Below, in pieces: positions 40,640 to 54,600 of a DNA stretch of 64,000 nucleotides (positions are counted from its first letter, which is position 1; each line of letters opens with the position of its first letter). The DNA comes from an uncultured Candidatus Binatia bacterium (GTDB lineage: Bacteria; Desulfobacterota; Binatia; UBA9968; JAJDTQ01), in assembly GCA_965218305.1 (NCBI GenBank), contig OZ244617.1, positions 715,776-779,775 of the forward strand. Direction: 5' to 3'. Both the position numbers and the translations under genes were made by a program. The notes under the pieces are model-generated. The model was not told the DNA's origin and searched no databases. It saw nothing but the letters and a program-made list of their open reading frames with translations.

Positions 40640-40983
40640 CCCTTGAGGGCTACATGAAAATGATGACGCTTCGCGTCCGTCATGCCGGCGAATCAGGCTG
40701 TGCCGAAGCTTCATCCGACAGAGGCAACGACCCCCGAACTCGTCATTCCCGCGAAACAGGCGGTGTCAAAACGCCATCCGGGAGAGGCAACGGCCCCCGA
40801 AATCGTCATTCCCGCGAAAGCGGGAATATCCAGGCGGAGTGGGGCCGGGAAACGCGGCGTAGCGCCCCTCCAGGACCGCCTGGATTCCCGCTTTCGCGGG
40901 AATGACGGAGGGAGTGCGAGAATGACGGACGCGGGCATTTGCTGGCTGTTTTCATGGTAGGGTCCTATCGGACAAGGACGATA
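40640..40983. repeat. Cluster of at least 4 copies or half-copies of the GTCATTCCCGCGAAAGCGGGAATCCAGG hairpin repeat. It sits inside the coxM2-coxS2 intergenic spacer.
   Basis: CGTCATTCCCGCGAAACAGGCGG at 40749, CGTCATTCCCGCGAAAGCGGGAATATCCAGGCGG at 40808, and inverted CCTGGATTCCCGCTTTCGCGGGAATGACGG at 40876. Flanking CATCCG.AGAGGCAACG.CCCCCGAA units occur in tandem. Spurious ORFs here read SFPRKRES / IPAFAGMT. Confidence 0.65.
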
Positions 40984-44896: not shown

Positions 44897-44956
44897 TGTG
44901 TCGGCAAATCTTGATCTAACACGAATTCCAACTACAATTGTGAGTTTGGGCGTCGT

Positions 44957-45262: not shown

Positions 45263-45682
45263 TTGAAGCGGCCGCAGAAGCGCAGTAAGCCGAAAAGGAA
45301 GATCGTGCTGGTTGCGGTGGGCTCAATCAGTCGGCGTGAGTTGGAAAGGATGGCGCAAGAAGCGCAGTATCGTTCCAGCGACTATCACAAGTCGGGCCCG
45401 ACGGCGGTTCCTCGTCCGGACAAGACGGTATGCGATTTGCCTACGTCACACAATGCGATAAATGCGACGGATTTACTGAGGGCGGGGTTTTGTCGAGGCA
45501 TGGTAAGCGAACAGGAACGCGGTGGTTGGCCACAGAACGTGTGGGCGGTCGATGCTGACGGGATTGTATACGAGGCCCAACTCACTAACTCGGGACTTGG
45601 GGAATATCACGGATATCCGATGACAAAGACCGACAGCTTCGCTGCCTTTGTCAGCAAAGAGTGGGAGAACCGCGGGACATGA
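45263..45682 (+). CDS. Hypothetical small protein (111-139 aa) with a conserved-looking ...VWAVDADGIVYEAQLTNSGLGEYHGYPM... motif. Possible toxin or effector component.
   Basis: ORF upstream of the ImmA-like gene with an ATGA overlap. The start is uncertain. Candidates are TTG at 45263, GTG at 45305 and ATG at 45350. Lysine-rich N-terminus if the longest form is used. Low GC. Confidence 0.5.
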   Translation: MKRPQKRSKPKRKIVLVAVGSISRRELERMAQEAQYRSSDYHKSGPTAVPRPDKTVCDLPTSHNAINATDLLRAGFCRGMVSEQERGGWPQNVWAVDADGIVYEAQLTNSGLGEYHGYPMTKTDSFAAFVSKEWENRGT

Positions 45683-46995
45683 CCCTCAATATCGGAACCA
45701 ACTGGTGCCGTGACCTCGATGGGGAATTTCCCGGAAGTCTGGAACCCGTGGAGGACGAGGCGACCCTCAGTGAGATCGTTATCGAGGCCGCGGAGGATAC
45801 CCTTACTCAAGCATTCGATCTTGAGAAGGGAAGTGTTCGCGATGGTGTTAATCTTTCAGCCTACCGATTGGCCGAATGGCTGATCTGGAACTGGTGGCGT
45901 CTTCGCTGGGAACCCGCACACCAGAACGCTCAACGTGATCGGAGCCTGGAGTGGCGACAGGCGCACGAGATGGCAGGTATCGGTCGCGGGTGGTTGTGGC
46001 CAAACATTGTGATAATGTCCGACGGTCTTCGAATCGAGTTGGACGTGAGACCGACATCGGAGACTCGTACAGAGCGCCTGCGCTATATGACGGACAAGAG
46101 AACGGTGGTTTCCGCCGAAGCTTTCGAGGCCGGGGTCGACGCCTTGGTAGGACGCGTCCTGGAAAGGCTGGGCCGTAGTCCGGTTCCTGATTCCGACCTT
46201 GTCATCGCATGGAGGGAGCTTGCCGCCGAGCGAAATGACGCCGAACTGACCATGTACCGAATGATTGAGGCGTGCCGGGGCTTCGATGTGGACGAAGCTG
46301 ATCCAGAGCAGATTGAGCAGATTATTGCGGATGGCGACGAGTTGGGAACCAGCGCGATTTCGGAAGTGGCGGCGGATCAGTTTCTCACCGCGGAGGAATT
46401 GCACGTGGTAGCAACGCAGTCAGGTTTTGATACTGATCCTGGCAGTGGGGCAGACCCGCTGAACGGCTCATGGAATGGGCTCGGAAACATTGCTCCCTGG
46501 CGGGTCGGCGCGGATGCGGCAGGGAGTCTCCGGTCTCGAGAGAAGTTGGGCGATGACCGGGTGTCTGATGTACGATTGGCCGAGTTGTGCGGGATTGACG
46601 ACCGTGCCTTGGGTGAATTGGGTATCGGTGGCCCGATGGCGTTTACGCTCCATGCAAAAGACGGTCCTCGAAGTCACGTCGTTTTGCGCTCGAAATGGCG
46701 AACTGGGCGGCGCTTCGAGTTGGCGCGCTTGCTCGCCGACCACCTTCTCGTAGACAACGAAGAGAGTCTCCGGCCCGCGACTCGTGCGTCCACATACAGA
46801 CAAAAAATGCAGCGCGCATTTGCGGCCGAGCTTCTTTGTCCTGTTGCGAGTCTGGTTGATTTCCTAAATGACGATTTCTCGGATGAGGCACGGGAAGAAG
46901 CAGCGGAGCGATTCGACGTATCCCCGTTCGCGGTTACGGCGGTGCTCGTAAACAACGGCAGACTCGACCGTGATGAAGTCCGCCCCATGATCTGA
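45679..46995 (+). CDS. Multidomain protein: about 260-aa N-terminal domain of unknown function (Trp-rich), an HTH-like segment, and a C-terminal ImmA/IrrE (COG2856/DUF955)-like domain with a degenerate HExxH.
   Basis: The C-terminus RRFELARLLADHLLVDNEESLRPATRASTYRQKMQRAFAAELLCPVASLV aligns to the ImmA motifs HELGHxLLH ... E.ANxFAAELLMP. The zinc histidines are replaced (F...R...H). ...VRLAELCGIDDRALGEL resembles a helix-turn-helix. The N-terminus contains LIWNWWRLRWEP. Confidence 0.6.
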   Translation: MTLNIGTNWCRDLDGEFPGSLEPVEDEATLSEIVIEAAEDTLTQAFDLEKGSVRDGVNLSAYRLAEWLIWNWWRLRWEPAHQNAQRDRSLEWRQAHEMAGIGRGWLWPNIVIMSDGLRIELDVRPTSETRTERLRYMTDKRTVVSAEAFEAGVDALVGRVLERLGRSPVPDSDLVIAWRELAAERNDAELTMYRMIEACRGFDVDEADPEQIEQIIADGDELGTSAISEVAADQFLTAEELHVVATQSGFDTDPGSGADPLNGSWNGLGNIAPWRVGADAAGSLRSREKLGDDRVSDVRLAELCGIDDRALGELGIGGPMAFTLHAKDGPRSHVVLRSKWRTGRRFELARLLADHLLVDNEESLRPATRASTYRQKMQRAFAAELLCPVASLVDFLNDDFSDEAREEAAERFDVSPFAVTAVLVNNGRLDRDEVRPMI

Positions 46996-47047: not shown

Positions 47048-47098
47048 GGCGACCTGCCACTCGCTGTCAATCGGAGAAATAGTCTTGGCAGGTCGCCT
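47048..47098. terminator. Perfect 12-bp inverted repeat (GGCGACCTGCCA...TGGCAGGTCGCC) between the convergent islet genes. Putative bidirectional terminator or hairpin.
   Basis: Stem at 47048-47059 and 47087-47098 with a 27-nt loop. No strong T-tract. Confidence 0.35.
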
Positions 47099-47620
47099 CT
47101 ACGAACTGGTTGTATCTTCCCTTCCAAGCAGTTTCGGGAATCTCTCACAAACCTCCGCGACGACCTCGTGCCCGTTTTTCGCCTCATCCTGTGCAATTCT
47201 GATCGTTCCTGTGAAGTTACCGCATTTGTCAGTATGCAGATGAGCTTTTTCGTGCACGAGTTCTTTCCTTGCCTCACGCAGTTGCTCGATTTTTTTCAAC
47301 AACCTCATGTCGCTGCAGCCTAGCAGCCGTAGTTTTTTCTCATACGACATTCTATCAACCTCTTCGTAACGCTCCCGACCGTGCGTCTCTACGATCAGGA
47401 GATGCAGCGCGGCCTCAAGCCAGATGCAGCTGAAGACAACCGAGATTAGCGCGTCCTTGAACGAAGTTTGGTTCGGATCGAATGATTTGACGTGTCCGCT
47501 GTCGACGGATTCGGGACCGCTGCGTAGGTCCCTATCGTCTGTCATCCTCATAAAGGCTGTATCCGCAATCGACCTGAAGACATGGATGTTCGTGAACACG
47601 TACCGTTGTTTTGAACTCAT
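47099..47620 (-). CDS. Hypothetical protein with an Rx4H HEPN-like motif (putative HEPN-domain RNase).
   Basis: 173 aa. ...LLKKIEQLREARKELVHEKAHLH... contains R-KELV-H. Lowest GC of the window (about 47%). GGAAGGA Shine-Dalgarno before the ATG. Confidence 0.5.
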   Translation of the reverse strand: MSSKQRYVFTNIHVFRSIADTAFMRMTDDRDLRSGPESVDSGHVKSFDPNQTSFKDALISVVFSCIWLEAALHLLIVETHGRERYEEVDRMSYEKKLRLLGCSDMRLLKKIEQLREARKELVHEKAHLHTDKCGNFTGTIRIAQDEAKNGHEVVAEVCERFPKLLGREDTTSS

Positions 47621-47736
47621 GTCGTCCTTCCAGCGAGTTCGGTCTGTTTCGGCGGATTTCTGGAGACAGTTCTAACGATGTCGGAGGGCGCGGGCTCAGG
47701 TGGAAGAGCGAACATAACCTTCAGCGTTAGTTTGGG

Positions 47737-48789
47737 CTAGATCCCGTACAGCGCCCTGGCGTTGTCGTCCACGATCTTGCGGCGGGCCTCCGCGCCGACC
47801 GCATCGTTTTCCTGCAGAACCTTCAGCGCTTCGAGCTGGCTGGACGTATCGGCGTGGCCGTAGTCGGAGCCGATGACGATATGGTCCTCGCCGGCGTACT
47901 GGAGGATGTAGGGCAGGTCCTCTTCAGTCTGGCAGGCGACGTAGAAGCGGTTGCGGCGCAGCACGTTCGCCTTTTCATCCAGCTGCCGGGTGCCTGTCCG
48001 GTGGAGACGGGCGCCGAGGTCGGTGATGAGGTAGGGGACCCAGGAGGCCGCGGCTTCGAGAAAGCCCCAGCGGAGGTCGGGGAAGCGGTCCGGGACGCGG
48101 CTTAGAACGAGCGAGTGGAAGGCGGTGATGATGGGCACCTTGGCCATCCACAGGGCAGTGGCGCGGGAGTGAAAGAGGCCGCTCAGCGCGTGGTTCACCA
48201 GTCCCGAGTGAATGCATGCCGCCATGTCCAGCCGGCTGGCTTCGGCGTAGACCGGGAAGTAGTCCTCGTCGATGGGTATGCGCTCGCCCAGGAGGCCCTG
48301 CAGCAGGAAGCCGCAGGCGCCGTTTTCACGGCTGAAGCGAAGCTCCTCCAGGGCCACGTTCATGGTCAGCAACGGCAGCGTCGCCACCCAGCGCAGGCGC
48401 CCTTGGCTCCGGCGCCAGATGTCGGCCATCCAGCGGTTGTAGGCGCGGCACATGGCGATCTGGGTCCGGGGGCGGCTCAGGGTGGCGAGACCCAGAAGGG
48501 TGGTGGGGTAGAGCACCTGGATGTCGGTGCCGAGCTCGTCCATGTGGCGCAGCCGCGCCGCCACGTCCCGCAGCTCGGAAGACTCCGGAGTCGTGCCGGA
48601 GCTGGCGGGCGGGAAGGCCCGTTTGGGCTCCAGGTTGCTGTCGAACAGCCAGAAGTCGTTCCTGCGGAGCGGGTCCGACTGATCCGCGGCCTCCAGGATG
48701 CGGGGCTTGTGGCGCCGGTCCTCGCCTTCCATGTACTCCCAAGTCTCTTCGCATTCGATGACGTGGCAGTCCGCGTCGATGACGGCCAT
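47737..48789 (-). CDS. Amidohydrolase-2 family protein, likely 2-amino-3-carboxymuconate-6-semialdehyde decarboxylase-like.
   Basis: MAVIDADCHVIE...IHSG...HSL...SDYGH metal-ligand pattern. Immediately downstream of a 3-hydroxyanthranilate dioxygenase gene. Confidence 0.7.
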   Translation of the reverse strand: MAVIDADCHVIECEETWEYMEGEDRRHKPRILEAADQSDPLRRNDFWLFDSNLEPKRAFPPASSGTTPESSELRDVAARLRHMDELGTDIQVLYPTTLLGLATLSRPRTQIAMCRAYNRWMADIWRRSQGRLRWVATLPLLTMNVALEELRFSRENGACGFLLQGLLGERIPIDEDYFPVYAEASRLDMAACIHSGLVNHALSGLFHSRATALWMAKVPIITAFHSLVLSRVPDRFPDLRWGFLEAAASWVPYLITDLGARLHRTGTRQLDEKANVLRRNRFYVACQTEEDLPYILQYAGEDHIVIGSDYGHADTSSQLEALKVLQENDAVGAEARRKIVDDNARALYGI

Positions 48790-51527: not shown

Positions 51528-51660
51528 TCATTCCGGCACCCCTCCGTCATTCCCGCGAAAGCGGGAATCCAGGGGTGGTGGAGGGGTGCTGCGCGGTGTC
51601 TCCCGCCCCACCCCACCTGGATTCCCGCTTTCGCGGGAATGACGATCGCGGGGCCTGATT
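51528..51660. repeat. Inverted pair of GTCATTCCCGCGAAAGCGGGAATCCAGG repeats forming a large stem-loop.
   Basis: CGTCATTCCCGCGAAAGCGGGAATCCAGG (51544-51572) ... CCTGGATTCCCGCTTTCGCGGGAATGACG (51618-51646), with a 45-bp spacer containing GGGGTGGTGGAGGGG / CCCCACCCCACC. Confidence 0.65.
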
Positions 51661-54547: not shown

Positions 54548-54600
54548 AGTCCGTCATTCCCGCGAAAGCGGGAATCCAGGTGGGGTGGGGCGGGGCCTTA
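54548..54600. repeat. Half-copy of the GTCATTCCCGCGAAAGCGGGAATCCAGG repeat.
   Basis: CGTCATTCCCGCGAAAGCGGGAATCCAGGTGGGGTGGGGCGGGG at 54555-54598. Confidence 0.6.

Follow-up and report, generated by a model that had tools for sequence, protein, structure and literature searches.

The ImmA, IrrE and CapP proteases serve as the textbook case of derepression triggered by a protease, as found in prophages, integrative and conjugative elements, the Deinococcus radiation response and the cyclic-oligonucleotide-based antiphage signalling system (CBASS). The third zinc ligand of these enzymes is a glutamate, which in IrrE is E113. In CapP it is E129, and a regulatory cysteine-switch loop lies in the substrate groove; both CapP and PprI have been found to be stimulated by single-stranded DNA (ssDNA). 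Proteins of the same COG2856 (Peptidase_M78) group have long been linked to toxin-antitoxin (TA)-like modules: COG2856-Xre modules have been linked to RelE or PIN toxins, and the antitoxin of RosmerTA (RmrT/RmrA), whose toxin is of unknown function, carries a Zn-peptidase domain. Here we describe a two-gene module at positions 45263-46995 of a 64,000-nucleotide stretch of contig OZ244617.1 from an uncultured Candidatus Binatia bacterium (hereafter ‘the window’, meaning that whole stretch), in which a small basic protein is encoded directly ahead of a large acidic one with a divergent ImmA/IrrE-like domain. The reading that we favour, with some reserve, is that the module is a self-contained, mobile operon of TA type, possibly acting by abortive infection, in which a small toxin would be neutralised by a pseudo-protease. 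The conclusion that the large protein is a pseudo-enzyme is solid; the biology of the module we infer.

The M78-like domain of the large protein

The large gene (45679..46995, forward strand) encodes 438 aa from an ATG start, and its product, the candidate antitoxin or neutraliser, has an isoelectric point (pI) of 4.6 and a net charge of about -31. The ATG at 45679 is likely to be the start of the gene, because the N-termini of homologues coincide there and because the ATGA overlap with the upstream gene is conserved. The protein itself has no match in Pfam (PF06114 included, at E<=1), NCBIfam, PADLOC or PHROGs, and a sequence-profile search of the PDB with the family alignment gave chance-level matches only. 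Its C-terminal ~160 residues (272-432, encoded at 46492..46974) are homologous to the ImmA/IrrE (Peptidase_M78, COG2856) domain, as four independent lines of evidence agree. Firstly, an AlphaFold2 (AF2) model built on 29 homologues, with a mean predicted local distance difference test (pLDDT) score of 82 and a predicted template modelling (pTM) score of 0.77, was found by Foldseek to resemble Thauera CapP best among PDB structures (7t5t, E 5.7e-3, prob 1.00), followed by IrrE (3dti/3dte, prob 0.98/0.96) and then PprI (8slm/8sln), each over ~175 columns; among viral models (BFVD) the top match was a phage ‘IrrE protein’ (prob 1.00). Secondly, hhalign paired residues 272-432 of the family profile with residues 120-282 of a profile of 26 bona fide PF06114-bearing proteins, seeded with a gene for a helix-turn-helix (HTH)-M78 protein that lies near the homologue in locus L002 (94.1% probability, E 1.2e-7, 149 columns); the same M78 profile gave 0.06% in a control against the unrelated small-protein profile. 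Thirdly, sub-threshold PF06114 matches fall at the right place in 15 of 29 family members (best E 3.6e-4). Fourthly, a remote relative on the Tistrella mobilis plasmid pTM2, which matches the hidden Markov model (HMM) of the large-protein family from end to end (E 6e-32), scores above the Pfam gathering threshold for PF06114 (29 versus 22 bits). The large protein has in common with the M78 family the overall zincin-like fold: it begins with a helix and a strand, continues with the ‘active-site’ helix and a next helix that ends ...FAxxFLxP, and closes with a terminal F.VS... helix.

A COG2856 likeness had already been proposed in a sequence-only reading of this DNA, and the strings quoted there are indeed present: FELARLLADH at residues 346-355, QRAFAAELLCP at 378-388, VRLAELCGIDDRALGEL at 296-312 and LIWNWWRLRWEP at 68-79. 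The profile-profile alignment and the Foldseek matches to CapP, IrrE and PprI bear the likeness out, and extend it from the last 100 residues, to which it had been confined, to about residues 272-432. The segment RLAELCGIDDRAL, which had been called HTH-like, aligns with the N-terminal helix-strand of the M78 domain (LVELMEERGIKVL in a real M78 protein); it belongs to the peptidase-like fold and is not an HTH, and no HTH family was detected in it. That reading had also taken the zinc ligands to be substituted and the domain to be non-catalytic, which agrees with the present alignment, although in a register (F346-E-L-A-R350, with histidine replaced by Phe and Arg) that is four residues off. 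In the hhalign register RQRLTMAHELGHLVL of real M78 pairs with GRRFELARLLADHLL of the large protein, so that HELGH aligns with R350-L351-L352-A353-D354 (46726..46740, located by the profile-profile alignment and the codons in the sequence). The first histidine of HExxH, a zinc ligand, is thus replaced by R350, the catalytic glutamate by L351 and the second zinc histidine by D354; the third zinc ligand, a glutamate that is nearly invariant in the M78 profile (E222 in the template), is replaced by Q375 (46801..46803, placed by the same alignment and by conservation).

Conservation was assessed in 210 non-redundant relatives of the large protein with 38-93% identity to the window protein. R345, R350, D354, R374, Q375, Q378, F381, L386 and P388 are invariant in all 210 relatives, and in none of them is HExxH found at the aligned position. 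The alternative register, which would retain E347 as the catalytic glutamate, has to be given up, as E347 is not conserved (E in 153 relatives, A in 35, D in 19). There is no invariant histidine or cysteine in the domain: C387 is Ser in 37 of the 210, and position H355 is rarely His. Since both zinc histidines, the catalytic glutamate and the third ligand are all replaced, the large protein, as judged from the alignment, cannot be a zinc peptidase. The invariance of R350, D354 and Q375 throughout the relatives argues that it is a conserved pseudo-peptidase under strong purifying selection and not a decaying gene. The former metal site is probably filled by the side chain of R350 together with D354, Q375 and E384. 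Between the two ‘ligand’ helices lies a conserved insertion (residues about 362-374, 46762..46800), seen as a nine-residue gap in the M78 profile, which has the pattern LRPATxxxTYR, with P366, T368, T372, Y373 and R374 invariant or nearly so, and which includes a strand predicted by AF2 at 364-367. The cysteine-switch loop of CapP is found at the same place.

Some relatives nevertheless carry enzyme names in public databases. RefSeq calls the Tistrella protein an ‘ImmA/IrrE family metallo-endopeptidase’, and UniRef lists an Afipia member as ‘IrrE N-terminal-like domain-containing protein’; neither can bind zinc canonically, and both names are flagged here as annotation errors. The Tistrella protein (locus L097) has a FARAVGD motif and no HExxH, despite its name. 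Because HExxH, the third ligand and an XRE partner are all missing, the large protein should not be annotated as a metallo-endopeptidase. No cognate XRE-family HTH repressor was found, in that no HTH family was detected in either protein of the module and the sole conserved neighbour of the large protein is the small one.

The N-terminal region of the large protein (residues 1-270, 45679..46488) was described as large, Trp-rich and unassignable in the sequence-only reading, and this still holds: searches of Pfam, PDB profiles and Foldseek (PDB and BFVD) returned no significant family or fold match. It is predicted by AF2 to comprise two beta4-alpha units (3-77 and 110-166), the first of which ends in a Trp-rich helix (AEWLIWNWWRLRWEP), followed by a helical bundle (173-248); it also holds a GWLWP motif and carries a net charge of -28. 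A PUR/Whirly fold, prompted by the beta4-alpha topology, was rejected: the Foldseek match to PUR-alpha is insignificant (prob 0.18, root-mean-square deviation 15 A), as are those to MreB/Hsp70 (prob <=0.11), and the net charge of -28 argues against nucleic-acid binding by this region, which further disfavours such a fold. The idea of a standalone N-terminal domain was likewise abandoned, because the matches on Acidithiobacillus plasmids are remnants truncated by insertion sequences (IS). On Acidithiobacillus caldus pTcM1 (locus L100, 3109-3597) a 162-aa N-terminal fragment of the large protein lies beside an ISL3-family transposase, near genes for IscB and for an N-6 DNA methylase; the plasmid is mobilisable, and the fragment is a remainder of the module after truncation by an IS.

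The small partner and the spread of the module

Immediately upstream, on the same strand, lies a gene (45263..45682) of 139 aa with a TTG start, whose product (pI 9.4) is the candidate toxin. It was overlooked in the earlier reading and is the best clue to the function of the large protein. Its stop codon overlaps the start codon of the large gene in an ATGA at 45679..45682, read from the sequence, which would couple the translation of the two genes. The small protein, whose N-terminal tail (KRPQKRSKPKRK) is basic, has a net charge of +5 and belongs to a highly conserved family. An invariant Y..HK...R..T.C segment is left disordered by AF2 (pLDDT 78), and the C-terminal half is predicted to form an alpha-beta-beta-beta-alpha arrangement that bears the invariant E104 and G.YHGYPM. 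An exhaustive profile search recovered 911 clusters at 50% identity, essentially all of them standalone proteins of ~140 aa. The idea that the small protein might also occur as the C-terminal domain of larger polymorphic toxins was rejected, as the few longer matches resemble miscalled starts or chimeras.

No match to the small protein was found in Pfam, NCBIfam, PADLOC or PHROGs, nor above chance in PDB profiles, and Foldseek searches of the PDB with its model returned only NTF2-like and Hsp70 proteins at prob <=0.18, so that no fold was assigned. Several assignments from sequence patterns were considered and dropped: GIY-YIG, suggested by the spacing of GIVY...YHGY, an H-Y-E ADP-ribosyltransferase with a YHG[ST]-like motif, PD-(D/E)xK, and HicA/RelE/barnase. 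The protein stops 20 residues past YHGYP, conservation does not extend to every motif residue, and none of these assignments is backed by a profile or fold match. Public annotation of the small partner contains errors. On the Massilia sp. H6 plasmid NZ_CP103373 (locus L098, 3500-3956) it is annotated as 80 aa, but the frame encodes the full ~145 aa; on Tistrella pTM2 (NC_017966; locus L097, 3643-4011) it has no public annotation.

The pairing of the two genes has been found to be very widely conserved. In a genome scan, at least 524 GTDB species-representative genomes were found to hold a gene for a relative of the large protein; they come from Binatia, Latescibacterota, Vicinamibacterales, Alpha- and Gammaproteobacteria, Nitrospirales, Pirellulales, Spirochaetia and others, and when named by phylum the hosts include Acidobacteriota, Pseudomonadota, Nitrospirota, Planctomycetota and Verrucomicrobiota. 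The closest relatives of the window are Binatia with 84-88% DNA identity and the same flanking genes. The small gene lies immediately upstream of the large one, on the same strand, in 75 of 80 fetched loci, and the plasmid and viral relatives carry it there too. When divergent small proteins (from Bryobacterales, Verrucomicrobiota and a metagenome) were taken as the starting point, the large gene was found directly downstream in all loci reached. The two genes overlap by the 4-nt ATGA in 35 of 75 loci, and nearly all the others overlap by <=23 nt or are separated by a gap of <=8 nt; among the fetched loci no further gene was found to be conserved with the pair. The GC content of the module is lower than that of its flanks in 66 of 79 loci. 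Flanking contexts vary between taxa: the module lies near an MmeI-type restriction-modification (RM) system with the HTH-M78 gene in locus L002, near dptH and a patatin-like gene on a Massilia plasmid, and near a tyrosine integrase and a RepC-like gene in Afipia and Xanthobacter, and it is also found on conjugative plasmids. The module is thus an autonomous, horizontally mobile two-gene operon with near-obligate pairing of its genes.

Two of these contexts deserve separate mention. In a metagenome-assembled genome (MAG) of Latescibacterota (locus L094, 1-7468) the module lies immediately downstream of a pair of genes for an AAA_15/AAA_21 ATPase and a DUF4276 protein and of a Helicase_C, MZB(DUF1998) and PLDc_2 trio, in a DISARM-like arrangement; these surroundings are a clear defence island. 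On an Allorhizobium pseudoryzae plasmid (locus L099, 5778-7129) a second overlapping pair, of a 98-aa and then a 352-aa gene, is found directly downstream of the divergent copy of the module; both genes are annotated as hypothetical and have no Pfam match, and the pair may form a further two-gene module within a small island.

Which of the two partners might be the toxin is indicated by the way in which the module decays. Gene integrity was scored across 86 loci as HMM coverage within a single open reading frame (ORF). Both genes are intact in 69 loci, the large gene is intact and the small one frameshifted, truncated or absent in 13, the large gene is disrupted beside an intact small one in none, and both are disrupted in three. 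Neutral decay or sequencing error should strike the large gene more often, as it is three times longer. One of the 13 small-gene disruptions is in the 86%-identical orthologue of the window at the same chromosomal site (locus L001, 5593-6001), where the small gene is frameshifted just before YHGYP and the large gene is intact. From this asymmetry, in which the small gene is often disrupted alone and the large one never, we infer that the small protein is the candidate toxin and the large pseudo-protease the candidate neutraliser.

Explanations for the function of the module

In the TA-type operon that we propose, the small basic protein would be the toxic effector and would act on nucleic acid through E104, Y115, H116 and the HK/R residues. 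A nucleic-acid target is put forward because of the basic tail and the invariant His-Lys, Arg, Glu and Tyr-His residues. The large acidic protein, whose translation is coupled to that of the small one, would neutralise it by direct binding, for which the dead protease cleft or its conserved insertion could offer the binding or regulatory surface, and the toxin would be released after some stress or infection signal. The complementary charges of the two proteins (+5 and -31) fit the idea that an acidic protein holds a basic toxin aimed at nucleic acid, and features like those of type II TA systems are present: a co-oriented, overlapping two-gene operon, a patchy horizontal distribution and asymmetric decay. 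A broader proposal, which is tentative and falls a little short of an even chance, is that the module represents a new and widespread TA or abortive-infection family in at least 500 species-level genomes, with a novel toxin fold or activity and a pseudo-protease antitoxin whose Arg-Asp-Gln network has turned the old cleft into a site that holds the toxin or senses the trigger.

Several observations weigh against the TA-type operon. The small protein cannot be placed in any known toxin family or fold, and the activity proposed for it is a guess; neither protein matches RosmerTA or any other PADLOC-DB v2 model at E<=1; and both the Arg-Asp network and the lack of any metal site are deduced from sequence alone. 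The histidine of YHGYP is not universal, since the motif becomes YKGWP in the Tistrella branch, and in the Allorhizobium branch the small protein lacks its whole N-terminal half and consists of the beta-sheet half only, which means that the conserved disordered loop cannot be all that the pseudo-peptidase would bind. Only one IMG/VR viral contig carries the module, and several loci, the window included, lie in ordinary metabolic neighbourhoods and not in defence islands. Finally, some of the disrupted small genes come from long-read MAGs, in which indel errors are common; this caveat is weakened by the expectation that such errors should strike the larger gene more often.

The strongest of the alternatives, although still unlikely, is a phage-defence system of sensor-effector type, in which the pseudo-M78 protein would sense a phage or DNA-damage signal, in analogy to the stimulation of CapP and PprI by ssDNA, and then release or activate the small effector, with constitutive sequestration in the antitoxin manner not its main role. 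In structure the large protein is closest to CapP and PprI/IrrE, which regulate immunity and DNA-damage responses when a signal activates them; the insertion of the large protein occupies the position of the CapP cysteine-switch loop, some loci lie beside DISARM-like, Dnd/Dpt or RM genes, and the asymmetry of gene decay fits a sensor as well as it fits an antitoxin. However, the large protein lacks a GAF domain and any other known domain for ligand binding, its net charge of -31 argues against nucleic-acid sensing, many loci lie outside defence islands, and neither protein has a PADLOC match. The sensor explanation also overlaps with the TA-type operon rather than excluding it. The sensor or scaffold role suggested in the sequence-only reading is compatible with the data, and a toxin-neutralising partner is the better supported of the two.

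A second alternative, which we regard as improbable, is that the domain has been neo-functionalised as an enzyme, with a new Arg/Asp/Gln/Glu centre that would chemically modify the small protein or reverse its action, in the manner of a type IV or type VII antitoxin, or that would act on another substrate. R345, R350, D354, T368, Y373, R374, Q375, Q378, R379 and E384 are unusually strictly invariant, and polar invariance of this order exceeds the needs of a purely structural plug; yet a tight protein-protein interface would equally produce it, and the domain has no invariant His, Cys or Ser nucleophile. To our knowledge there is no precedent for such chemistry on an M78 scaffold, which counts further against it. 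A non-toxic regulatory or housekeeping module, in which a small nucleic-acid-binding regulator would be paired with a large modulator much as ImmR is with ImmA, without cleavage, is equally improbable: the small protein does have a basic tail, M78 proteins normally partner DNA-binding repressors and among close relatives in the Binatia the module keeps its place in stable synteny, but no HTH or other DNA-binding family was detected in either protein, the spread over many phyla is patchy, with low GC and plasmid or integrase contexts, and frequent loss of the small gene alone is atypical of a regulator-modulator pair.

Setting of the module and comparison with known systems

In the window the module has a GC content of 57.7%, against 65.5% in the rest, and the low-GC region spans 45.0-47.7 kb. 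This low-GC insert, which comprises the module and a 173-aa ORF, sits between two amidohydrolase genes, and the whole of it is flanked by a 12-nt direct repeat (GTGAGTTTGGGC / GTTAGTTTGGGC) at 44940-44951 and 47726-47737; the repeat was not found in loci L001 or L006, and so may be due to chance or be specific to this genome. Between the stop codon of the large gene and the convergent ORF downstream lies a perfect 12-bp inverted repeat (GGCGACCTGCCA / TGGCAGGTCGCC, 26 nt apart, 47048..47097), a possible terminator hairpin. The convergent 173-aa ORF (47099-47620, reverse strand) contains RKELVH, which fits the HEPN Rx4-6H pattern, and has no significant match in Pfam, NCBIfam, PADLOC or PHROGs; the ~590-bp segment that carries it is missing from the otherwise syntenic loci L001 and L006, and the ORF may have been acquired separately, as a small gene for defence or for a toxin. 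Elsewhere in the window, intergenic palindromic repeats that resemble miniature inverted-repeat transposable elements (MITE) or repetitive extragenic palindromic (REP) sequences are found at 40741-40907, 51545-51644 and 54555-54576. Their core, CGTCATTCCCGCGAAAGCGGGAATCC, occurs in 5 copies in the window where 0 would be expected by chance; they include a 42-nt inverted repeat at 51545-51644 and a 63-nt tandem unit at 40678-40803, and they generate recurring ‘SRESGNP / DSRFRGND’ pseudo-ORFs.

The module shows the M78 scaffold reused as a non-catalytic one, in a lineage that has neither the catalytic residues nor the HTH partner and that has a new small partner instead. It defines two protein families that Pfam does not model, one being the small partner and the other the N-terminal region of the large protein. 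The module is a candidate source of a new toxin activity, and may prove to be one more of the mobile modules that serve in stress or defence. No catalogued system matches it, and literature searches on its motifs or on pseudo-protease antitoxins found nothing relevant and no paper on the module.

Comparison with the described M78 systems brings out both the kinship and the differences. M78 proteins are generally accompanied by an XRE/HTH substrate gene or fused to an HTH, and the large protein has neither: its M78-like domain is C-terminal to a 270-aa acidic region, and its partner is a small non-HTH protein. In CapP/CapH the M78 domain is followed by an HTH-like linker and a GAF domain, with CapH as the partner in an immune operon, an architecture that the large protein fails to match, as it consists of the N-terminal domain and then the pseudo-M78 domain, lacks GAF, and has no CapH-like HTH neighbour that could be found. 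RosmerTA and the COG2856-Xre modules are likewise mobile and patchily distributed two-gene modules in which an M78-type partner is found with a small protein of unknown function. In those systems, however, HExxH is kept and an XRE HTH is fused or adjacent, whereas in the present module the domain is dead, there is no HTH and the small gene comes first. In its working the module would most resemble a type II-style TA or abortive-infection pair with the toxin gene in first place. With respect to classical type II TA systems, in which a basic toxin of RNase type is paired with an acidic antitoxin, the candidate antitoxin is unusually large (438 aa) and is without a DNA-binding domain, no DNA-binding family having been detected in it, and the small protein was found by neither sequence nor Foldseek comparison to resemble HicA, RelE, ParE or barnase-type toxins. 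The likenesses to type II systems lie in the pairing of a basic small protein with a larger acidic one, in the alpha-beta-beta-beta-alpha topology of the C-terminal half of the small protein, in the decay of the small gene, which is tolerated only in that direction, and in the gene order, since in HicAB, a type II system, the toxin gene also comes first, as the small gene does here with translational coupling to the large one.

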